Virus record (IMG/VR): IMGVR_UViG_3300025861_000007 | DNA from: a virus | Direction: 5' to 3' (one strand) | Length of the DNA stretch: 64,000 nucleotides | Shown here: positions 4,300 through 64,000 of the stretch, in pieces | Layout of the letters: every line of letters begins with the position of its first letter | Position numbering within the stretch: position 1 is the stretch's first letter | Program-made: the position numbers and the translations under genes | Notes under the pieces: model-generated | What the model was told of the DNA's origin: nothing | What the model saw: only the letters and a program-made list of their open reading frames with translations | Databases searched by the model: none

Positions 4300-6120
4300 A
4301 TGCCTAATATACCACAAAATAAAGGACAAAAATTATTAGAGATAGCCAAGTGTATCAAAGACCCTATCTATGCGATAGAAAGTTATCTCGAGACTTTCGA
4401 CCAAACACAAAAAGGTTTTGTTAATTTTAAATTGTTCCCTAAACAGAAAGAATTAGTTGATTCTTATAGACGAGAAAGATTTAATATAGTGATGAAACCC
4501 CGTCAGGCGGGAGTATCAACTACAACAGCGGCTTATATAGCTGTTATGACGGCATTAGCCGACCCAAACAGTCCACAAAGGGTTCTTATTCTTGCTAATA
4601 AACAAGAAACAGCAATTGAATTCCTTAAAAAAGTTAAAGATTTTACATCACAACTACCCGCATGGATGAATGTGTGGGCAGGACCTGGTAGTGATTCTTG
4701 GTTCGACCCTGAAAAAAATTCAGCTAAACATTATCGTCTAAGAAACGGTTCTGAGGTTAAAGCGGTAGCAACTTCAATGGATGCTTTACGTGGTTATACC
4801 CCTACACTCCTTGTCATGGATGAGGCAGCATATATTGAGGGTGGTGAAGAAGTTTATTCAGCAGCTCAACCAGCACTTTCTACAGGTGGTAGGGCAATTC
4901 TTATTAGTACACCTAATGGTATGGACCCATTGTACTATAAAACCTACATGTCAGCTAAAACTAAAGAAAAAACAAACAATCCATTTAACATTGTTGAGAT
5001 GAGATGGTTCCAAGACCCTCGTTACAACAAAGATATGAAATGGCAGAAGAAAAATGAGGCAGGTGAGGTTATAGAAGAGAAAATCGATATGGATTACTCT
5101 CATTTCACACAATTAGAAGAAGAGGGGTGGGAACCAACAGCACCTTGGTTTGAAATGATGTGTGGTCAGTTAAATAACAACGCTAGGATGATTGCACAAG
5201 AGTTATTATGTGCCTTCAACGGTTCTGGTGATAACGTTATTAACTCAAAATATATTGAATATCATAGAAAACATAATGTTCAAGACCCTATTAGAACTGA
5301 ATGGTTAGATGGTGGTATGTGGATATGGGAAGACCCAATCCTAGGACATGAATATATAATGTCTGTCGACGCTGCGTCTGGTTCAGCTGACGACTTTGCA
5401 TCTATTTGTATTACCGATTTCACAACAGGTAATCAAGTAGCTGAATACCACGGTAAAATAGCCCCTGATGTTTTGGGTGAGATAGCAACTGAATATGGTA
5501 ATCGTTATGAGGCTTATGCTGTTGTTGATATTACAGGCGGTTATGGTGTTTCTTCTGTATTAAAAATGATTGAGTTGGGTTATCCAGCAAAAAGAATGTA
5601 TTATGACCAAGTAATTGGTATTGATTCTGTTAATAATAATAAGAATCTAGAAAAACATATGAGAGATGGTAAATTACCAGGTCTCAACTTCCAAAAGAAT
5701 AGAAATACAATTGTTACCAAACTAGAAGAATCTATACGTTTGAATTCGTTTAAAGTTAGGTCTGTTAGGGCTTTAGCTGAGATGGATACATTCGTATTTA
5801 AAAATGGTAGACCTGACCATATGAAAGGTTATCATGATGACTTATTAATGGCTATAGCTATGTGTTGTTTCGTTTCTCAAACATCGTTTAAGGATTTTGA
5901 GAAGAGTAAGGGTGTAGCTAAAGCGATGTTAGATTCTTGGGTTGTTTCTACTACAACAAATGAAACAATAACTGAATTAAACACAACTGAAAATAATTTC
6001 ATGTCGATGAGAGGTGATTTGACAAATCACGTACAAACAGCAGACTCACCACATAATTGGGTATTTCTTGGTTTAACAGGTTTCAAGGATAAAGATAAAA
6101 ATAGAAAAATTATAAAATAA
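4300..6120 (+). CDS. terL: Terminase large subunit (T4 gp17-like)
   Basis: Walker A KPRQAGVSTT, Walker B LLVMDEAA, nuclease motifs SVDAASG and HDDLLMA. Confidence 0.95.
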   Translation: MPNIPQNKGQKLLEIAKCIKDPIYAIESYLETFDQTQKGFVNFKLFPKQKELVDSYRRERFNIVMKPRQAGVSTTTAAYIAVMTALADPNSPQRVLILANKQETAIEFLKKVKDFTSQLPAWMNVWAGPGSDSWFDPEKNSAKHYRLRNGSEVKAVATSMDALRGYTPTLLVMDEAAYIEGGEEVYSAAQPALSTGGRAILISTPNGMDPLYYKTYMSAKTKEKTNNPFNIVEMRWFQDPRYNKDMKWQKKNEAGEVIEEKIDMDYSHFTQLEEEGWEPTAPWFEMMCGQLNNNARMIAQELLCAFNGSGDNVINSKYIEYHRKHNVQDPIRTEWLDGGMWIWEDPILGHEYIMSVDAASGSADDFASICITDFTTGNQVAEYHGKIAPDVLGEIATEYGNRYEAYAVVDITGGYGVSSVLKMIELGYPAKRMYYDQVIGIDSVNNNKNLEKHMRDGKLPGLNFQKNRNTIVTKLEESIRLNSFKVRSVRALAEMDTFVFKNGRPDHMKGYHDDLLMAIAMCCFVSQTSFKDFEKSKGVAKAMLDSWVVSTTTNETITELNTTENNFMSMRGDLTNHVQTADSPHNWVFLGLTGFKDKDKNRKIIK

Positions 6121-6121
6121 A

Positions 6122-6364
6122 ATGGCAAACCGAAACATTTCACAAAACAACCCATTTCAAGGTCAACCAAACGTAAGACGTGGAGCTGGACCTCAAAATT
6201 ATAAATGGAAACCATTACCTTTTGAAAAAACTAGTAAGTTCATACCTAAAAGACAAGGTACGGTTACTTGTGATAATGTAATAGATAATGTAACTACATA
6301 TGTGTATGACGTAATGCCAGACGGTAATCATTTGGCATACGTATATTGTGATTACGTTGTTTAA
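6122..6364 (+). CDS. Hypothetical protein
   Basis: 80-aa ORF between terminase and portal. Confidence 0.65.
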   Translation: MANRNISQNNPFQGQPNVRRGAGPQNYKWKPLPFEKTSKFIPKRQGTVTCDNVIDNVTTYVYDVMPDGNHLAYVYCDYVV

Positions 6365-6442: not shown

Positions 6443-8362
6443 ATGGCAGATAATAAAGACTTAACAGTATATCAAAAGTTGTTCTACCTTTTTGGGCAGA
6501 ATAAACCTACTCAAAGAGCAACTCCTAAATATAGTTTTAGTGATGGTGATTTAATGAGATCACAAGAGGAGTATAATAAACAAAAACTAGAACTACAACA
6601 ACAAAACTATCTTGAAGCTCAATGGCAAAGAGTGGATAGTGAATTGTACCAAAAAGCAGTTTACTATGAAACATCAAGGATTGCGTCTTATATGGATTAT
6701 GAGGCTATGGAGTTTACACCAGAAATTTCAGCCGCTTTAGATATTATGGCAGAAGAATCTTGTACACCTAGTGAACAAGGTAAAATTCTTACAATTCAAT
6801 CAAATTCAAAAAGGGTAAAAAATGTGTTAGAAGATTTATTCTATAATATTTTAGATATCCAAACAACATTACCAATGTGGACCCGTAACACATGTAAGTA
6901 CGGTGACAATTTCGTCTTCTTAAAAATTGACCACAAAAAGGGTATTATTTCTTCCGCTCAACTTACAAACATTGAAGTTGAACGTAAGGAAGAAGGTATG
7001 TTCACTCAAATACAAAAAGAGGGTGACCAAACACCAAAGAAAAGACAAGTTACTTTCCAATGGAGAGATAAAAATATGACTTTTAACCCATGGGAAATTG
7101 CACATTTCCGTTTATTGGGTGATGATAGAAGATTACCTTACGGTACTTCTATGTTAGAGAAAGCTAGAAGGATTTGGAAACAATTATTACTTTCTGAAGA
7201 TGCGATGTTAGTTTATCGTGTTGTTAGAGCACCTGAAAGACGTGTATTTAAAGTCTATGTGGGTAATATTGATGACAAAGACGTTGATGCTTACGTAAAT
7301 AAAGTTGCTAATAAATTTAAACGTCAACAAGTCACTGACCAAAAAACAGGTCAAGTTGATTTACGTTATAACACATTAGCCGTAGACCAAGATTATTTCG
7401 TTCCTGTTCGTGATCCTAACGCTCCGAACCCAATTGATACTTTACCTGGTGCATCTAACTTAGACCAAATTGCTGATATTGAATATATCCAAAGAAAATT
7501 ATTAACAGCATTACGTGTTCCTAAACCTTTCTTAGGGTTTGATGAGCCAACTGGTGATGGTAAAAACCTTTCTTTATTAGATATTCGTTTTGCACGTACA
7601 ATTAACCGTATTCAACAATCTATGATTCAGGAGTTGAATAAATTGGCAATTATACACCTATATATTTTAGGTTTTACAGACGATTTAAATAATTTCACAT
7701 TAAATCTTACTAACCCATCTACACAAGGTGAGATGTTGAAGATTGAACAATGGAAAGAGAAAGTTCTCCTTTACAAAGATTTAGTATCTCAAGTTGATGG
7801 TGGTATTGCACCTGCATCACATACTTGGGCTAAGAAAAATATCTTCAATTGGACTGATGATGAAATTAAAACCGACCTTGAACAACAAAGAATGGAACGT
7901 GCAGCCTCTAAAGAATTGGAGAATACACCTTCCGTTATCAAGAAAACAGGTTTCTTCGAAAGAGTTGATAAATTATACGGTGATGGTACTGGTCCACAAC
8001 AACCTACTGAAGAAGGTACTGGTGGTGGTGAAGACCTCGGTGGAGGTGGTGGAAGCTTCGGTGGAGGCGGAGGTGGATTTGATTTAGGTGGTGGTGAAGG
8101 AGAAGGTGAATTTGGTGCTGAAGGTGGACCTGAAATGGGTGGACCTGAAACCGCTGGAGAACCTGAGGTAGGTACTGAAACTGAATTTGGTGAAGGTTTC
8201 CGTAGTCAAAACAAAACTATTATTGATAAGTTATTAATGGAAGGTAGACGTAAAAATGAAGACATTATTATGATGACAGAAGGTATTAAAAACCTAATCG
8301 GTGATGATGATTCGGAAAACGAAGAAGAAGATGAAGATGATCTTAATTTATTAGAGAATTAA
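6443..8362 (+). CDS. Portal protein (T4 gp20-like) with Gly/Glu-rich tail
   Basis: YGTSMLEKARRIWKQL, EDAMLVYRVVRAPERRVFKVYVGN, DQDYFVPVR, IDTLPG, ALRVPK motifs. Confidence 0.95.
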   Translation: MADNKDLTVYQKLFYLFGQNKPTQRATPKYSFSDGDLMRSQEEYNKQKLELQQQNYLEAQWQRVDSELYQKAVYYETSRIASYMDYEAMEFTPEISAALDIMAEESCTPSEQGKILTIQSNSKRVKNVLEDLFYNILDIQTTLPMWTRNTCKYGDNFVFLKIDHKKGIISSAQLTNIEVERKEEGMFTQIQKEGDQTPKKRQVTFQWRDKNMTFNPWEIAHFRLLGDDRRLPYGTSMLEKARRIWKQLLLSEDAMLVYRVVRAPERRVFKVYVGNIDDKDVDAYVNKVANKFKRQQVTDQKTGQVDLRYNTLAVDQDYFVPVRDPNAPNPIDTLPGASNLDQIADIEYIQRKLLTALRVPKPFLGFDEPTGDGKNLSLLDIRFARTINRIQQSMIQELNKLAIIHLYILGFTDDLNNFTLNLTNPSTQGEMLKIEQWKEKVLLYKDLVSQVDGGIAPASHTWAKKNIFNWTDDEIKTDLEQQRMERAASKELENTPSVIKKTGFFERVDKLYGDGTGPQQPTEEGTGGGEDLGGGGGSFGGGGGGFDLGGGEGEGEFGAEGGPEMGGPETAGEPEVGTETEFGEGFRSQNKTIIDKLLMEGRRKNEDIIMMTEGIKNLIGDDDSENEEEDEDDLNLLEN

Positions 8363-14031: not shown

Positions 14032-14702
14032 TTTAATTTCCATTTATAACCACCACATTTATTTCTATTACCATTTATTACTGACCAAATATTACCTTGA
14101 CTTAAACCAAGATGTTCGGCAGCGTATTTAGCACTCCTCCACTCTTTTATCACCTTACCTTCTTTATCTAATTGTAAAACTGACTGTGCATTCCAACTCA
14201 CAGTACCCTTTTTACTTTCAGATATTTTTTTCTTTGTTTCTTCACTATGTTTAGATCCCTTATGTCTATTATTACCAATAAGTGATTTACTAATTTTATC
14301 TCTAAATTCTTTAGTCCTCATATGTGACCTATCCATTTTTTTAGAAACCTCAGATATTTTCCTTTTAGCCTCATCACTATGTTTATGACCCATAGAACCT
14401 ACATCACCACCGATTGTTAGATTAGTTAATTTATGTCCGTTATTTTTAAACTCACTAATCCAAAACACCTCACGTTCGTTTAAAATGTATAAATCACATT
14501 CTTCTAAAATTTCTATTTTAACATCGTTTAATAAACCCTTATCTCTTAAACCAATTAACCAGCTATTTTTATGGCTAATACTTTTATCAATATCATTTAA
14601 ATGTCGATATAATCTAACTTTAAGTTTTTGTATAGTTTTACCGATATATCTACATTCATTATTTGTTGGATCTATTAATTTGTAAATGTAACCTTTTTCC
14701 AT
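14028..14702 (-). CDS. GIY-YIG homing endonuclease
   Basis: GYIYKL...RYIGKT, EREVFWI, NUMOD3-like HSDEAKRKISE repeats, C-terminal NUMOD1-like HTH; own ATATTTAT promoter. Confidence 0.9.
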   Translation of the reverse strand: MEKGYIYKLIDPTNNECRYIGKTIQKLKVRLYRHLNDIDKSISHKNSWLIGLRDKGLLNDVKIEILEECDLYILNEREVFWISEFKNNGHKLTNLTIGGDVGSMGHKHSDEAKRKISEVSKKMDRSHMRTKEFRDKISKSLIGNNRHKGSKHSEETKKKISESKKGTVSWNAQSVLQLDKEGKVIKEWRSAKYAAEHLGLSQGNIWSVINGNRNKCGGYKWKLK

Positions 14703-47689: not shown

Positions 47690-48373
47690 TTATAACATTA
47701 AGTCATTATTAGGTGTTTTAATTATCCATTTAATTTTTTGTTTTTCTGATATTTTATTTTTAGCGTTTTCTGTATGTCTATATTTTTTATTCTTTTCTGA
47801 TAAAATTTTTTTAGATTTTTCTGTATGAGATTTACCCTTCATCCAAGGTGTTTGACCTTTTTTAGATACACTAATTTTATTTTTAGTCTCTTGTGATAGT
47901 CCCCTACCTTTTATAGAGTGTGGTTTACCTTTTTTGGATTCACTGATTTTTTTCTTGGTTTCTTCAGATAACGGTTTTAATTTTCTATTTTTTAATTTTT
48001 TACTAATTTTTTTCTTAGTCTCTTCTGAGATTATAACAATTTTACCTTTATTAGATTTACTAATTTTATTTTTAGTATCTTCTGAATGTTTTTTCCCTAA
48101 CATAGGTGAACCACCATCACCGCCGTTAGATATGTTATACCCTATTTTAGGGTTTTGTGAGTTAAGTTTTTCTATCCAAAATGTTTCACGTTCATTTAAT
48201 TTTTTACGTGTATCACAATACTCAATTATCTCTTTTTTAAAATTTTCTATACCATATTTTTTTATAGCTCTTTTTAATTTTATTCCAGAACCTAAGTATT
48301 TTGGGTTGTTTTTGACATCCTTGCCAATATAAAATTTATTATTCAATAAATTAGTTGTTTTATATATAACCAT
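47690..48373 (-). CDS. GIY-YIG homing endonuclease (probable +1 frameshift near 3' end, extension to 47572)
   Basis: MVIYKTTN..NNKFYIGK, YLGSG, ERETFWI, repeated SEETKKKISE. Confidence 0.88.
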   Translation of the reverse strand: MVIYKTTNLLNNKFYIGKDVKNNPKYLGSGIKLKRAIKKYGIENFKKEIIEYCDTRKKLNERETFWIEKLNSQNPKIGYNISNGGDGGSPMLGKKHSEDTKNKISKSNKGKIVIISEETKKKISKKLKNRKLKPLSEETKKKISESKKGKPHSIKGRGLSQETKNKISVSKKGQTPWMKGKSHTEKSKKILSEKNKKYRHTENAKNKISEKQKIKWIIKTPNNDLML

Positions 48374-58560: not shown

Positions 58561-61008
58561 TTATGTGTAATCATTACCCACAGTCCAATACATAGCAGAA
58601 CCGTTATACGTGAAACTTAATATATCTATAGCGTTAGCTGTTGCTGTTAATGTTGGTGATCCACCCCCACCGTTTACCACTCTATGTGTTGATGCCGCAC
58701 CATTTACGGTACCAAAAGTTAAAGTACGTGAACCGACAGCATCCTGTTGTACTATAATAGTACCATATTCACCATTTCTAACATTAGTTAAATTTAATGT
58801 TGTGTTACCCGTTAAAGTTGTTTGATAATTTGTTGAATTTCCTGATACATCCCAAGTAAATGTTGTTGTAGAAGGTTGTGGGTAGTAAGGATCAATTGTA
58901 GGTCCACTAGAACCACCACCACCAGTTGTACCAGTTACCACAAATCCGTTGGCGTCTAAACCTAAATTTATTACAGATGTTCCCGTACCTATGATACCTA
59001 TGTTTAAATTAGGGACATAAGTTGTGTTTGAACTAACGTTTGTTAAGTTATCAACACCTAAGACTGTAATTTTTGTTTTATCATCACCTATTGTATTGTG
59101 ACTACCACCGATAATATTAATAAAAGTATTACCACTGTTTATTGTATTACCAATACCGTTAATTATAGCATTAAAGTGTGTGTCATTAGTAATACCAATA
59201 CCGTACGCGTATATCGTATTACCACTAGTGTTTAATAATAAATTACCTACGTGATTTGTTATACCCGCATCATTATTACCAACTATAGTGTCATATAATG
59301 AATTTATTAATGTGGATTGATAATTAACACTATCTATGAGGGAGTTCTCTGTGTTTATCATAACACCCCCATCACTAGTAGTTCCACCAGATATAACAAT
59401 AGCAGCTGAATCAAACATCAACCAAGGACCTGTTGAATTTAGATTAAGGTCTGCAGAATTTATAATAAATGGATTGTTTATACCCACAAAATTAGATTGA
59501 GATACGGTAAATAGTTTTAAATCATTACTATTAGATGCATAAACCCCAGTACTGTTAAAACTAACAGATTCATCGGAACTTATAAAAGTATTGGGGTCCC
59601 CATCACCACCAAAGATAAATGAAAGTTGTGAGGAACTAACTGTATTGTTATTTGTATTTAATACTATAGATTTATAGGATTCAAAAATACTACTATCAGT
59701 ACTACCTATAATTGTTGAATATGATGATGAGTTTGAAGTACCTGTAATACCACATCCCTTACTACCGATAATAGTTTCATGAACACCTATCTCAACAGGA
59801 CCATGTATTGTATTATCCCTACCACCAATAATAGATGCGTATGTATGTTGGTTTACTGTATTACCAGAACCACCCATAATTGATGAGTAGTTGGAACCAC
59901 TAATAATTGTGTTGTAAATACCATTTATAATAGTGGCCGCATTACTAGAATCTAAGTTATTATAACCACCGTTAATAATTGAAGAAGCTAATGACTGACT
60001 TAAATAATTACCTCTACCATTAGTGATTTCACTATATCTAGAGTTATATACCGTATTACCAGAACCAGAACCAATTAAATCATAAGTCGCTGTCGATAAT
60101 GTATCAATTATCTTATTTTGTTTACCAGAGTTTATGACACTATGAGCAACAGCCCTACCTAATTCATTTTGAAGTCCATTTACTATAGTACTATAACTAC
60201 TAGCGCTAATAATATTACTATTACCATTTAATATTGTAATACTATTATTACCGCCTTGTACCATATTATTTAAAGTACCAGTACCTATTAAACAATATGT
60301 TTGATTTGTTCCACTAATAGCGTTACTTAAACCACCAAGAATAGTATTGTAAGTACCACCTTCAAGTGGTAGGTATATAGTGTTCGTATTACCGTTTAAT
60401 ATTGAATTATATTGGGTAAAACTATTAACTCTTTGGATTAAGTTATTCTGACCACCACCAATGAATGAATATCTACTGTTTATGATGTCGTTAGTTAATC
60501 CATTAACAATGGTAGAACCTTGTGATGTTGTTGATGTACCTGAAATTTCATTACCAGTACCACCTAAAATTACACTATAATTCGAATATGTTGTGTTACT
60601 CCCTGAAAGTGGGATAATATCACCTGAGTTTGAACCAAAAATATAAGGTCCAGTACTACCTGTTAAAAGAGTGGATGCTGGGTACCAAGTAACACGACCT
60701 GTCGCATCTAAACCACCTAAAATATATCCTGTTACATCAACAGTTGTTGTACCTGTTGATCCACTTTGTAAAATAATTGGGGGTTCTACGATAAAAGATG
60801 AAGGTTCACCGATATTAATATAACCAGCAACACCGGCAATAACATATTGTGTACTAGCTGACGTACTACCTGTAAAATCTAATAAAGGTCCGTTTATACG
60901 GATAAAACCATTATTATCTATATAAGTTTGACCTGACAAAGAAATGGTTTCACCACTCCATTGTACTATTTGTCTATCTTCAAAATGGGGTCTAGTTAAA
61001 AATGGCAT
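58561..61008 (-). CDS. Tail fibre / receptor-binding protein with IIGGxxN-type repeats
   Basis: Dozens of (S/T)I(I/L)(G/N)GxxN units; C-terminal IVQQDAVGSRTLTF...DILSFTYNG. Confidence 0.8.
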   Translation of the reverse strand: MPFLTRPHFEDRQIVQWSGETISLSGQTYIDNNGFIRINGPLLDFTGSTSASTQYVIAGVAGYINIGEPSSFIVEPPIILQSGSTGTTTVDVTGYILGGLDATGRVTWYPASTLLTGSTGPYIFGSNSGDIIPLSGSNTTYSNYSVILGGTGNEISGTSTTSQGSTIVNGLTNDIINSRYSFIGGGQNNLIQRVNSFTQYNSILNGNTNTIYLPLEGGTYNTILGGLSNAISGTNQTYCLIGTGTLNNMVQGGNNSITILNGNSNIISASSYSTIVNGLQNELGRAVAHSVINSGKQNKIIDTLSTATYDLIGSGSGNTVYNSRYSEITNGRGNYLSQSLASSIINGGYNNLDSSNAATIINGIYNTIISGSNYSSIMGGSGNTVNQHTYASIIGGRDNTIHGPVEIGVHETIIGSKGCGITGTSNSSSYSTIIGSTDSSIFESYKSIVLNTNNNTVSSSQLSFIFGGDGDPNTFISSDESVSFNSTGVYASNSNDLKLFTVSQSNFVGINNPFIINSADLNLNSTGPWLMFDSAAIVISGGTTSDGGVMINTENSLIDSVNYQSTLINSLYDTIVGNNDAGITNHVGNLLLNTSGNTIYAYGIGITNDTHFNAIINGIGNTINSGNTFINIIGGSHNTIGDDKTKITVLGVDNLTNVSSNTTYVPNLNIGIIGTGTSVINLGLDANGFVVTGTTGGGGSSGPTIDPYYPQPSTTTFTWDVSGNSTNYQTTLTGNTTLNLTNVRNGEYGTIIVQQDAVGSRTLTFGTVNGAASTHRVVNGGGGSPTLTATANAIDILSFTYNGSAMYWTVGNDYT

Positions 61009-61009
61009 A

Positions 61010-62149
61010 TTATATTACGAACATTCCTAAAGGTCTATATTGTAATGCTTTATTTAACATCTCAGCCTCAGTAGCCTTACGTGTTAACATAGCGTCAGGT
61101 CTCAATCTCTCTAACCTTTCATTAAGTCTTTCCATTAAAGCTGTTTTATCTTCTTTAGCTTCACTTAATAACGATTCGTAGTCCATTGTAACTTCAGCAT
61201 CAGTAACACCAAGTGCACCACCGAATTTACCACGAACTCTACCTAGGGTTTCTTTACATAAAGCGGTAAAATAATCCCTTACCCATTGTTTTGATGGGCT
61301 ATTTAATTCACTAAAATTAACAACATCGACAGGAACGTCTGAAGGTAATTTAACAATATCTTTATTTGCGTTTAAACATCTTTGTCTATCTTCATCAGAA
61401 GTTGTTTCATAGTACCAATACCAAACCTTACTACCTGTAACGTTTATACGTTGTCCACCAATACCACCACCAAATACTAATCTACTACCTGGAGTAGACA
61501 TTAAGTGGAGTAATTTAGTTCCATTAGGACCGCCTGTAATTTTATATACAAGGTCCGAACTAATCATTCTTTGTTTTAAATTGTAATCAGCATTTCTTAA
61601 TGCAATATCAAAGGCTGGGGCTAAATAAAAACCACCATAACCGAAACCACCTGCCGCAGCACCATAAGGTAATTGACCTACACCACCACCAAATCCGTAA
61701 TCTCCGAATCCGTAGTTAGAATATAATGCGTAATCAATTGTTGGTGGTTGGAAGTATAATACTTCGTTTATTTCTCTACCAGCTGGTATGGAATAAACTT
61801 GTTGTCCTGCTTGAATTGTAACGAAATCTTGTTTCAATTCCCAAGGACCTCTAGCTTGTAAACCAACGATTTTGGAATAGGCATAAGTGAAAGAATCTTC
61901 ATACCCTAAACTTCTTGTTGTTAAAGCTTTTGCTAAATCAGCTGTATCTAAGTTAATACCATCTAAAGATGACCATTGGGTTTCAATTAACCAGTCATTG
62001 ATGTAGGATGAATGGTCTTCAATTGCAATCTCCAATAAAGTGCACATTTGTTCATCCTCCAACTCAATTTTTCTAAGTGGAGCTCCCAATCTATGTCTTA
62101 CTTGACGAAATAATTTTTGTTTTTCTGCTTCTTCTATTTGTAGCGACAT
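61010..62149 (-). CDS. Neck protein (T4 gp13-like)
   Basis: RLGAPLRKIELEDEQ, WVRDYFTALCKETLGRVRGKF. Confidence 0.7.
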   Translation of the reverse strand: MSLQIEEAEKQKLFRQVRHRLGAPLRKIELEDEQMCTLLEIAIEDHSSYINDWLIETQWSSLDGINLDTADLAKALTTRSLGYEDSFTYAYSKIVGLQARGPWELKQDFVTIQAGQQVYSIPAGREINEVLYFQPPTIDYALYSNYGFGDYGFGGGVGQLPYGAAAGGFGYGGFYLAPAFDIALRNADYNLKQRMISSDLVYKITGGPNGTKLLHLMSTPGSRLVFGGGIGGQRINVTGSKVWYWYYETTSDEDRQRCLNANKDIVKLPSDVPVDVVNFSELNSPSKQWVRDYFTALCKETLGRVRGKFGGALGVTDAEVTMDYESLLSEAKEDKTALMERLNERLERLRPDAMLTRKATEAEMLNKALQYRPLGMFVI

Positions 62150-62200
62150 GTGGACTTTATTTGATAAATATCCACAACATAGATTAATGATAAGTTAATA

Positions 62201-62404
62201 TTACATTTTTAACTTCTTGATTGGACCCATTTTTATTAGTTCTTTAAATAAGTCCTCATCTATCGTTACTTCTGTATTAGTTTCACCCATAACAGTACTG
62301 ATAATATCTCTTTTTCTTTGTAGAATATTAAAGATTTGGATATCTAAAGTGTTGTCAGCAATAGGGTAGTAGATATTAACAGTATTTTGTTGACCGATAC
62401 GGTA
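62201..62404 (-). pseudogene. Stranded alternative 3' end of the SNF2 helicase
   Basis: YRIGQQNTVNIYYPIADNTLDIQIFNILQRKRDIIS aligns with the helicase WRIGVEHIVNVYYPIAVGTIDEMIYNVLDKKKRIIS. Confidence 0.85.
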
Positions 62405-62444
62405 AAATTTTGTCCTAATCAGTATGCCCACATATTTATATAAT

Positions 62445-63158
62445 ATGAAAGGTGTGTACTTAATTAAAAATATTAAAACAGGAAAAGTCTATATTGGTTC
62501 TAGTATTAAGTTAGAGGCTAGGGAACAAAGACACTTTAAAAATTTAATAGATGGTAATCACCATTCTAATAAATTACAAAATTCATATAATAAATACGGT
62601 AAAGATTTTTTTATTTTTGAATCTATTGAAGAGTATGAAGAAATAGATAACAATAAGTTAATTCAAAGGGAACAATATTGGATTGATTATTATAACAGTT
62701 ACAATAATGGTTATAATTGTAGACCTAAAGCTGAAAATAATTATGGACATGAACACTCTGAAGAAACTAAAAAATTAATGTCTAAATTACATAGCGGTAA
62801 AAATAATGCTATGTATGGTAGGAAATTATCTGAAGAAACTAAAGAAAAAATTAGACAAAAGATGTTGGGGAGATTTGTTAGTGAAGAAACTAAAGAAAAA
62901 AAGAGAAAGATTGCGTTAAATAGAAAACACTCTAAAAAAACTAAACTTAAACAAAGTAGAATTAAAAAATCAAAACCAATATTACAATTAGATAAAAATT
63001 TTAAGATAGTGAAAGAGTGGTATTCTAAACGTGAGCCTTTACGTGAATTGGGTGTTAGAGTAGATTACGTGGTTAAAAGTAAAAATAAATTTTCTAAGGG
63101 TTTCTATTGGGTATATAAAAATGAATATGAATTATTTTTTAAAAATAGAACTAATTAA
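62445..63158 (+). CDS. GIY-YIG homing endonuclease
   Basis: MKGVYLIKN..TGKVYIGSS, REQYWID, NUMOD3 repeats; ATATTTAT at 62432. Confidence 0.9.
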   Translation: MKGVYLIKNIKTGKVYIGSSIKLEAREQRHFKNLIDGNHHSNKLQNSYNKYGKDFFIFESIEEYEEIDNNKLIQREQYWIDYYNSYNNGYNCRPKAENNYGHEHSEETKKLMSKLHSGKNNAMYGRKLSEETKEKIRQKMLGRFVSEETKEKKRKIALNRKHSKKTKLKQSRIKKSKPILQLDKNFKIVKEWYSKREPLRELGVRVDYVVKSKNKFSKGFYWVYKNEYELFFKNRTN

Positions 63159-63998
63159 ATCTTCAGATATATCAAGTTCTTCAAAATTTTCTCCTATAGC
63201 TTGTGATATTATACGTTTTTTCTTATCTAATACATTATATATCATCTCATCTATGGTACCAACGGCAATCGGATAGTAAACATTAACAATATGTTCAACC
63301 CCGATACGCCACGCACGATCCTCAGCTTGAGCATGGTTAGCAGGAACGAAATCTAAATCATTCATAATAACAATTTGTGCTGCAGTTAAAGTGATGGCAG
63401 AACCTGCTGAAATAAGATTACCAACAAAAACCATAACATTTGGGTTTTCTTGGAATTGGTCTATTGAGTTTTGTTTTTGTTTCTCGTTCATTCTACCGTT
63501 ATGTCCAACAGCTAGTTTACCAAAATGTGACATTAAAGCATCAAATGAATGTGTGAAGTTGGTGAAGATAATTACTTTCTGACCATTTTCAATTGCCTGT
63601 TCAGCTAATTCAATACTGTGTCTAACTTTTTCTTCTGCCAAATATTTTCTAAGAACTACTAATTCAACCATGTGTCGACCAGCACCTAGATTTTTACCCT
63701 CACTTTTAGCCCATTCAAGATACTCATCAAAAACTCTTTCATATTTACCCATATCATCGAGTTCTATGTAGTAAGGTGATACAATTTTAGGTGGTAAATC
63801 TAGATGGTCTTCCTTCTTTCTTCTTAAGATTAAATTTTTAGTTCTTTTATGTAGTTCTTCCAAATTAGAAGCACCATCTGTAACCCAAATTATTCTTTCT
63901 TTACCTAATTTAGTTTTCTTTCTAAATCTTTTAGCTGCACAATAACGGAAAGCGTAGAACTGCCAGTTGGCAGTTACTGGGGAATTACAAAGATGTAA
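63132..63998 (-). CDS. SNF2-family (HARP/SMARCAL1-like) helicase, C-terminal part (5' end outside window)
   Basis: Frame open to window edge (FRYC...GASNLEELH); KVIIFTNF, GITL-like AITLTAA, HAQAEDRAWRIG. Confidence 0.9.
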   Translation of the reverse strand, partial: LHLCNSPVTANWQFYAFRYCAAKRFRKKTKLGKERIIWVTDGASNLEELHKRTKNLILRRKKEDHLDLPPKIVSPYYIELDDMGKYERVFDEYLEWAKSEGKNLGAGRHMVELVVLRKYLAEEKVRHSIELAEQAIENGQKVIIFTNFTHSFDALMSHFGKLAVGHNGRMNEKQKQNSIDQFQENPNVMVFVGNLISAGSAITLTAAQIVIMNDLDFVPANHAQAEDRAWRIGVEHIVNVYYPIAVGTIDEMIYNVLDKKKRIISQAIGENFEELDISEDLISSIFKK

Positions 63999-64000
63999 TA

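Follow-up and report, generated by a model that had tools for sequence, protein, structure and literature searches.

We analysed a 64,000-nucleotide stretch of viral DNA (IMG/VR virus record IMGVR_UViG_3300025861_000007; hereafter the window, meaning this whole stretch), at the right-hand end of which a gene for an SNF2-type helicase, on the minus strand, meets tail to tail a gene for a GIY-YIG homing endonuclease on the plus strand. A second, diverged copy of the helicase C-terminus lies on the other side of the endonuclease gene. An earlier note, made from the letters of this DNA, had proposed that the endonuclease arrived with a replacement 3' end for the helicase gene and stranded the old one; the relatives described below support this history, through empty sites that are colinear with the stranded copy and through an intact tail that groups with a discordant clade. 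The intact tail is called here the A copy, the stranded tail the B copy and the gene downstream of them nb. The features of the locus are the following.

63132..64000, minus strand: 3' part of the SNF2-type helicase gene (residues 319-606 and stop), from the list of open reading frames (ORFs), Pfam Helicase_C and a PHROG DNA helicase match (E = 4.6e-103)
63135..63311, minus strand: putative replacement helicase tail (A copy), from the W of WRIGV in motif VI to the last codon, completing the helicase in frame
63132..63158, unstranded: 27-nucleotide antisense overlap of the 3' ends of the helicase and endonuclease genes, of equal length in the window, L010 and L136
62445..63158, plus strand: free-standing GIY-YIG homing endonuclease gene, 237 codons from a conserved ATG (Pfam GIY-YIG and NUMOD3, 1mk0, PHROG)
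62405..62444, plus strand: endonuclease leader of 40 nucleotides, right-hand end of the putative imported cassette, homologous to the leaders of L136 and L010
62201..62404, minus strand: putative stranded native helicase tail (B copy), a pseudogene fragment of 67 codons from the Y of YRIGQ, and stop (BLASTP, colinearity with L007)
61010..62200, minus strand: native 51-nucleotide spacer and downstream gene of 379 residues (nb), which adjoins the helicase gene in empty-site relatives
63642..63779, unstranded: probable left recombination breakpoint interval, helicase residues 392-437 (sliding identity, informative sites, discordant trees)
62405..63700 (left end approximate, ~63650-63780), unstranded: putative imported tract of ~1.3 kb, with the last 170-205 helicase codons, the endonuclease gene and the 40-nucleotide leader (identity, trees, alignments)

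The helicase gene exceeds the end of the window and has its stop codon at 63132-63134 on the minus strand. In the record G001, which is 99% identical to the window across the region, the full-length protein has 606 residues and matches Pfam SNF2-rel_dom (E = 1.7e-32) as well as Helicase_C (E = 8.8e-13), as expected for a member of the SNF2 family within superfamily 2. The downstream gene nb occupies 61010-62149, and its PHROG match to a head-tail adaptor is weak and covers only 64 residues. The Pfam search gave no match for nb or for the short ORF at 62201-62431.

This short ORF contains the second helicase tail. The 8-mer CGTATCGG, corresponding to the R-I-G codons on the minus strand, is found at 62394-62401 and again at 63301-63308, exactly where the earlier note had located it, and the two diverged C-termini do flank the opposite-strand GIY-YIG gene as that note had described. 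The stranded copy is also still open, with 67 codons from the Y at 62404 to a stop at 62201-62203, while the ORF called mechanically begins at a GTG at 62431 and has 76 codons. By BLASTP, it aligned with the true helicase C-terminus over 58 residues without gaps (47% identity, E = 1e-16), and the match begins exactly at the RIG of motif VI. An assembly chimera or artefact was considered and is unlikely, because an A tail followed by a B remnant recurs in three assemblies with different IMG/VR record identifiers (G001, L005 and L006).

With the helicase, the endonuclease and the downstream gene as entry points, we gathered ~90 related loci and tabulated 52 distinct helicase sequences; single loci are designated below by their handles. 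DNA and protein searches of an annotated phage collection revealed no close cultured relative, the only matches at the DNA level being 80-nucleotide GIY-YIG stretches in Klebsiella phages and the best helicase match being 34% identical. The window lineage and its relatives are uncultured large phages, since contigs of the relatives reach 300-380 kb in some cases; G001 is a contig of 47 kb rated 13% complete. In 20 of the 52 distinct helicase sequences, down to 42% helicase identity, the gap between the helicase and nb measures only 20-52 nucleotides, an arrangement that is best read as the ancestral, empty one. The endonuclease-free phages L007 and L068, with ten others, have a single helicase tail that directly abuts the downstream gene. 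From position 62408 of the window downward, the stranded copy, the 51-nucleotide spacer and nb are colinear with a tail of the L007/L068 type followed by the same elements. When the window was aligned with these endonuclease-free relatives, as had been suggested, the copy at 62201-62404 came out, by position and colinearity, as the probable native one and the intact tail as foreign. The relatives display the locus in four states.

Empty (L007/L074 and L068/L069, helicase 72-73% identical to that of the window): one tail with the consensus YRIGQDK, a 51-nucleotide spacer, then nb
Occupied (window): intact endonuclease gene and a stranded tail of 67 codons
Partly eroded (G001, L005): window positions 62345-63047 replaced by ~24 nucleotides, with the last 111 nucleotides of the endonuclease gene and 51 B codons left
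Fully eroded (L006/L055, helicase 84% identical): endonuclease gene absent, ~38 B codons starting 5 nucleotides past the helicase stop

The foreign origin of the intact tail was evident from the mosaic structure of the helicase. In sliding comparisons, the window helicase was 72-76% identical to L007, L068 and L134 over residues 1-150 versus 42-53% to a second clade, designated A (members compared: L133, L093, L091, L086 and L084), whereas over residues 426-600 it was 82-90% identical to the A-clade L133 and 40-68% to L007. At 71 informative sites, L007-type and A-type residues numbered 33 and 10 ahead of residue 392, versus none and 28 beyond residue 401 (Fisher P = 1e-11). The tree of residues 1-400 joined the window lineage with L007/L068 (support 96/90), whereas that of residues 430-544 placed it inside the A clade (94/92) and apart from L007 (94/91). 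In a tree of the tails, the intact tail clustered with L133 and L006, again inside the A clade, and its identity was 82-84% to the tails of L133 and L136 versus 44% to that of L007. The helicase thus carries in frame a C-terminus of normal length (606 residues in G001) which, together with 110-150 codons before it, groups with the A clade, as in the mobile elements of fungal mitochondria discussed at the end. On both sides of this region the sequence is of the other type: the upstream gene of 172 residues is 79-83% identical to L007, L063 and L075 versus 61-69% to the A clade, and nb is 82-87% identical to the L007/L063-type clades versus 74-76% to the A clade. Because both flanking genes are of the recipient type and not of the A type, the ~1.3-kb segment from 62405 to ~63650-63780 is best explained as a foreign patch rather than a module swap. 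The earlier note had described the two copies as running from motif VI onward, which holds for the duplicated part; the import, however, would begin ~110-150 codons further upstream; therefore only the sequence beyond the right-hand junction would be duplicated, the imported helicase DNA being longer. As to the stranded copy, its best identities are 58% to the L007 tail and 55-57% to L063-type tails, and we regard it as the native tail on the grounds of colinearity and position, not of phylogeny.

The endonuclease ORF, which in its longest form spans 62424-63158 on the plus strand, matches Pfam GIY-YIG (PF01541, E = 2.8e-10) and, at residues 108-144, NUMOD3 (E = 2.6e-12), that is, a C-terminal DNA-binding module of the NUMOD type. 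Its N-terminal domain matched the I-TevI catalytic domain (PDB 1mk0, E = 2.6e-16) with the catalytic positions GIY (GVY), YIG (VYIG), R, H, E and N (GYN) in register, as required of a GIY-YIG enzyme, and a PHROG homing endonuclease match covered residues 3-230 (E = 4.4e-32). Homologues in L136 (80% identity) and L010 (67%) both start at the second ATG of the window's ORF (62445), and the gene has 237 codons without indels in all three lineages. The pairwise ratios of nonsynonymous to synonymous substitution rates (dN/dS) are 0.12-0.20, which indicates purifying selection on the gene. An active enzyme is probable, because the I-TevI catalytic positions align, the 237 codons are free of indels in three lineages and dN/dS is low. 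An intron- or intein-encoded enzyme was considered and rejected: an Rfam search of 61000-64000 returned no family at E <= 0.1, hence no group I intron was detected, and the ORF lies opposite the helicase strand. Because it is antisense to the helicase and without an Rfam intron, the gene is taken to be free-standing. The overlap of its 3' end with that of the helicase has an identical length, 27 nucleotides, in three of three genomes (window, L136, L010), and the homology of its leader with those of L136 and L010 extends to window position ~62405-62410. By presence/absence comparison, the window, L136 and L010 are occupied alleles, and the relatives together comprise empty, occupied, partly deleted and fully deleted alleles, a polymorphism of the kind that homing endonuclease genes display. 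Two more GIY-YIG-like sequences, 32-35% identical to this endonuclease, lie elsewhere in the window at 14103-14648 and 47921-48355, both on the minus strand, and the genome is rich in homing endonuclease genes.

The arrangement in a donor is represented by the metagenome contig L136, which has an A-type helicase with WRIGV at motif VI and a tail 84% identical to that of the window. Its order is helicase, endonuclease gene (with the 27-nucleotide overlap), an unrelated gene of 635 residues and then the downstream gene, with no duplicated tail. The homology of the cassette between the window and L136 or L010 ends at ~62405-62410, and the stranded copy begins at the Y codon at 62404-62402; beyond the endonuclease leader, a donor of the L136 type and a recipient of the L007 type have no sequence in common. 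We propose the following course of events. In the donor, a free-standing GIY-YIG gene would have lain tail to tail with an A-clade SNF2-type helicase gene, as it does in L136. The endonuclease gene would then have been copied into the helicase gene of an L007-like phage of a different clade by double-strand-break repair with homology on one side only. On the left, the recipient and donor helicases would have paired, and the donor would have been copied from about residue 400-437 through the stop codon, the endonuclease gene and the 40-nucleotide leader. On the right, where donor-type phages have another gene and homology was therefore lacking, an illegitimate join would have been made immediately 5' of the Y codon in motif VI (YRIGQ). 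The product would be a hybrid but complete helicase, with the recipient's own last 67 codons left as a decaying stretch that has the endonuclease gene on one side and the downstream gene on the other. One-sided illegitimate repair of this kind has been demonstrated for T4 intron homing, according to the summary of Parker et al. 1999 that PMC2988022 gives. We consider the historical part of this account, the import of the endonuclease with a foreign tail and the stranding of the native one, highly probable. One-sided homing with an illegitimate right-hand junction is its likely mechanism, and we infer that the endonuclease itself made the break.

After the invasion, two close relatives appear to have shed part of the stranded tail along with the endonuclease gene, of which G001 keeps a small part and L006 nothing. 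The DNA identity between the window and L006 is ~80% in the imported tract and likewise ~80% in the downstream region, which fits a single invasion preceding the split of the window and L006 lineages; repeated invasion is also possible. At L006:5633-5700, motif VI reads PWRIGQDK, in which the A-type W is combined with the consensus GQDK, and the protein is identical to that of L007 over RIGQDKTVNVYYP. This hybrid motif may come from a later gene conversion by the stranded copy or by an empty-site phage.

Where the endonuclease cuts is suggested by the alleles of motif VI. All ten short-gap empty alleles examined read [YF]RIGQ[DE]K; the alleles with this endonuclease beside them have WRIGV (window, L136) or RISQ (L010). 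RISQ is also found in the alleles linked to a second, unrelated GIY-YIG gene (L056, L059), and L072 has the same tail without an endonuclease gene; the change of Gly to Ser in RISQ alleles takes two nucleotide substitutions. From this correlation, in which the lineages are not independent samples, and from the position of the junction, motif VI may be the target and the variant codons may confer immunity. We give about an even chance that empty alleles are cut at or close to their motif VI codons, and we infer that the imported WRIGV allele would be immune.

We considered also a more far-reaching possibility, in which the endonuclease and the tail form one interlocked mobile cassette that re-inserts at the same motif VI nucleotide in one phage lineage after another, each time with an immune WRIGV or RISQ allele, and in which a YRIGQ-like relic in the leader marks an earlier insertion. 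The 27-nucleotide overlap is kept across three lineages that are 67-80% identical in the endonuclease. A degenerate YRIGQ-like sequence is present in the leader of L010 with 18 of 24 matches, a score reached by 54 of 5000 shuffles (~1%), but the relic is not significant in the window or L136, where ~20-24% of shuffles score as well; it may be a lead for repeated insertion at one point and is not used here as evidence. We hold this possibility as tentative and on balance doubtful. If true, the cassette would be a phage counterpart of the fungal mobile elements, spreading with one-sided homology and rewriting a catalytic helicase motif.

Several points weigh against the history proposed here or against parts of it. 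The break could have been anywhere in the replaced tract, at the far end ~400-500 bp upstream of the junction, and at a recombination joint the endonuclease may have been no more than a passenger. In the tail tree, the stranded copy has a long branch and an ambiguous placement, although such a branch is the appearance expected of a long-decaying fragment. Synonymous sites are saturated (proportion of synonymous differences, pS, 0.76-0.80), which makes dN/dS on the fragment uninformative for relaxed selection, and the differences between the window and G001, 2 at 141 sites in the fragment versus 13 at 1140 in the neighbouring gene, are without statistical power. Finally, the nearest donor found is only ~81-87% identical across the imported tract, so that the actual donor is unsampled.

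The strongest of the alternatives is that ordinary recombination between co-infecting phages joined within the helicase gene and carried the endonuclease gene along as a non-causal passenger. What is observed is indeed only sequence mosaicism, phage nuclease genes are known to lie at exchange boundaries without every exchange being a proven product of the nuclease (PMC10055350), and the junction between the helicase and nb is a general insertion hotspot. However, the exchanged segment is a short patch of ~1.3 kb with recipient-type sequence on both sides and ends exactly with the endonuclease leader; purifying selection acts on the endonuclease gene; and a second, unrelated GIY-YIG gene is also tied to a tail replacement (L056 versus L064 and L072), so that we judge a mere passenger improbable.

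This second case deserves description. In L056-L062, a different GIY-YIG gene, 37% identical to that of the window, occupies the same convergent position after the helicase (L056:1323-4000). The L056 helicase is 96-100% identical to that of the endonuclease-free L064 over residues 1-450 and only 61% in the tail, and this tail is 91-98% identical to that of L072. In the 217 nucleotides upstream of the second endonuclease gene of L056, only ~10 nucleotides of the old tail are left. L056 therefore appears to represent a very recent endonuclease-associated tail replacement and supports the general model of import with the endonuclease, and, because so little of its old tail is retained, a large stranded copy would not be an obligatory outcome. 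A search of all other enlarged gaps between the helicase and nb found a stranded tail only in the window lineage.

Less probable still is that the ORF at 62201-62431 is an independent functional small gene, coding for a regulatory peptide or serving as a recombination reservoir. Its frame is still open over 67-76 codons, the last ~38 codons survive in each of the three descendant lineages, the final 10 residues hardly vary from the window to L006, and such fragments have been suggested as recombination substrates by Barth et al. (PMC10055350). Against it, the window, G001 and L006 each have the 5' end truncated at a different point and share no start codon, and the ORF is without any helicase motif upstream of motif VI and has no Pfam match. 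Signals for the neighbouring downstream gene would account equally well for the survival of the distal part; a scan for promoters and terminators of that gene returned no terminator, and its promoter-like sites were fewer than in shuffled sequence. Under a last alternative, the helicase 3' end would have been duplicated in tandem within the genome, the endonuclease gene would then have inserted between the copies and the copies would have diverged in place. This would account for two same-strand direct repeats that are 47% identical, but it is the least credible of all and we exclude it because the clade-discordant signal extends beyond the duplicated part, the intact copy grouping with a different clade together with more than 100 unduplicated upstream codons (28 of 28 informative sites), which divergence in place could not bring about.

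Other elements were encountered at this locus. In L136 (4188-7049, minus strand), and in L084 and L085 (1012-3963, plus strand), the helicase has an in-frame insertion of ~350-380 residues right after the GLGK of motif I; in L136 it matches Pfam LAGLIDADG_3 and is probably an intein with its own homing endonuclease. With this insertion and the two GIY-YIG genes, the same helicase gene is seemingly targeted by at least three kinds of selfish element. L004 (G001) has two more GIY-YIG/NUMOD3 genes at 5489-6280 and 6794-7495, both on the minus strand and immediately upstream of where the helicase gene starts, in a region whose equivalent is beyond the end of the window. In the A clade, the gap between the helicase and nb is occupied by a gene of variable length, 159-635 residues (L086:3505-4000, L093:3268-4000, L136:1549-3456, L010:2887-3995), with repeats starting with a motif like MMRNLIKK..ESDFDWI and no Pfam or PHROG match, and more distant relatives have genes of ~500 residues and others in this gap; because of these variable occupants we consider the junction to be an insertion hotspot. 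At L088:8638-9123 (minus strand), continued in L133, the helicase is inverted ~3.5 kb downstream of the neighbouring gene and converges on a gene of 131 residues, a homologue of which lies downstream of the endonuclease in L010 (2887-4381). In view of these two arrangements, gene order around the helicase differs between clades.

The locus would thus be a natural record of a free-standing homing endonuclease invading a gene with donor-recipient homology on one side only, in which the host gene survives through the replacement end brought by the element itself, while the old end persists as a fossil that can be dated. Separate metagenome assemblies show the site empty, occupied, half eroded and fully eroded, so that the life cycle of the endonuclease and its co-conversion tract become readable for one event. 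The unusual residues in motif VI of an essential phage helicase are found exactly in endonuclease-linked alleles, which suggests that selfish elements shape the sequences of core replication proteins. For annotation, short ORFs adjoining phage endonuclease genes deserve a check as possible stranded ends of the neighbouring gene.

Much of this process has precedents. For the free-standing Seg and Mob enzymes of phages, co-conversion of flanking host sequence is textbook knowledge (PMC2988022). The present case resembles the T4 system in having a free-standing I-TevI/Seg-type GIY-YIG enzyme and flanking co-conversion over hundreds of bp, and a junction without homology is what that system leads one to expect when one flank alone is homologous. 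Unlike the T4 cases, which were shown experimentally, ours is read from comparative sequence, and among the natural T4-family events whose descriptions we found, none leaves a duplicated gene end. Fragments of essential genes have also been described in the homing endonuclease gene (HEG) islands of ICP1-like vibriophages (Barth et al., PMC10055350). There too, endonuclease genes stand at exchange boundaries and adjoin small ORFs that are fragments of neighbouring essential genes, although the enzymes are of the T5orf172 and HNH families and the phages are different; unlike in those islands, the donor clade, the recipient clade, both junctions and the decay stages can here be reconstructed for one event. 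In T4, mobA and the gene 60 bypass cassette, reportedly the subject of work by Bonocora and others in 2011, are said to be likewise a case in which an endonuclease travels with sequence that leaves the host gene working and also abolishes the target site, except that the protective element is a translational bypass insert and not a replacement gene end.

The closest parallel, already drawn by the earlier note for endonucleases that carry a duplicated 3' end of their target, is with the mobile open reading frames (mORFs) of fungal mitochondria, and the architecture found here does match that of the mORFs of atp6 and others. Such elements with a foreign C-terminus are described in atp6 of Allomyces macrogynus (Paquin et al. 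1994) and in atp6, atp9, cox2 and nad3 of Glomus (PMC3630166). In both settings the endonuclease gene lies in the 3' part of the host gene, a foreign C-terminus completes that gene in frame and the native one is left cut off downstream. Phylogenetically, the inserted tail is foreign in both; in mORFs the native tail matches close relatives. The present system differs in that the host is a phage helicase and not a mitochondrial respiratory gene, in that the endonuclease is antisense with a 27-nucleotide overlap, whereas mORFs are downstream on the same strand or fused in frame, and in that the import reaches far beyond the duplicated part on its upstream side. We regard the locus as a phage example of a known process, particular in its antisense 27-nucleotide interlock, its SNF2-helicase target, an import reaching 110-150 codons beyond the duplication and the preservation of all stages in relatives.

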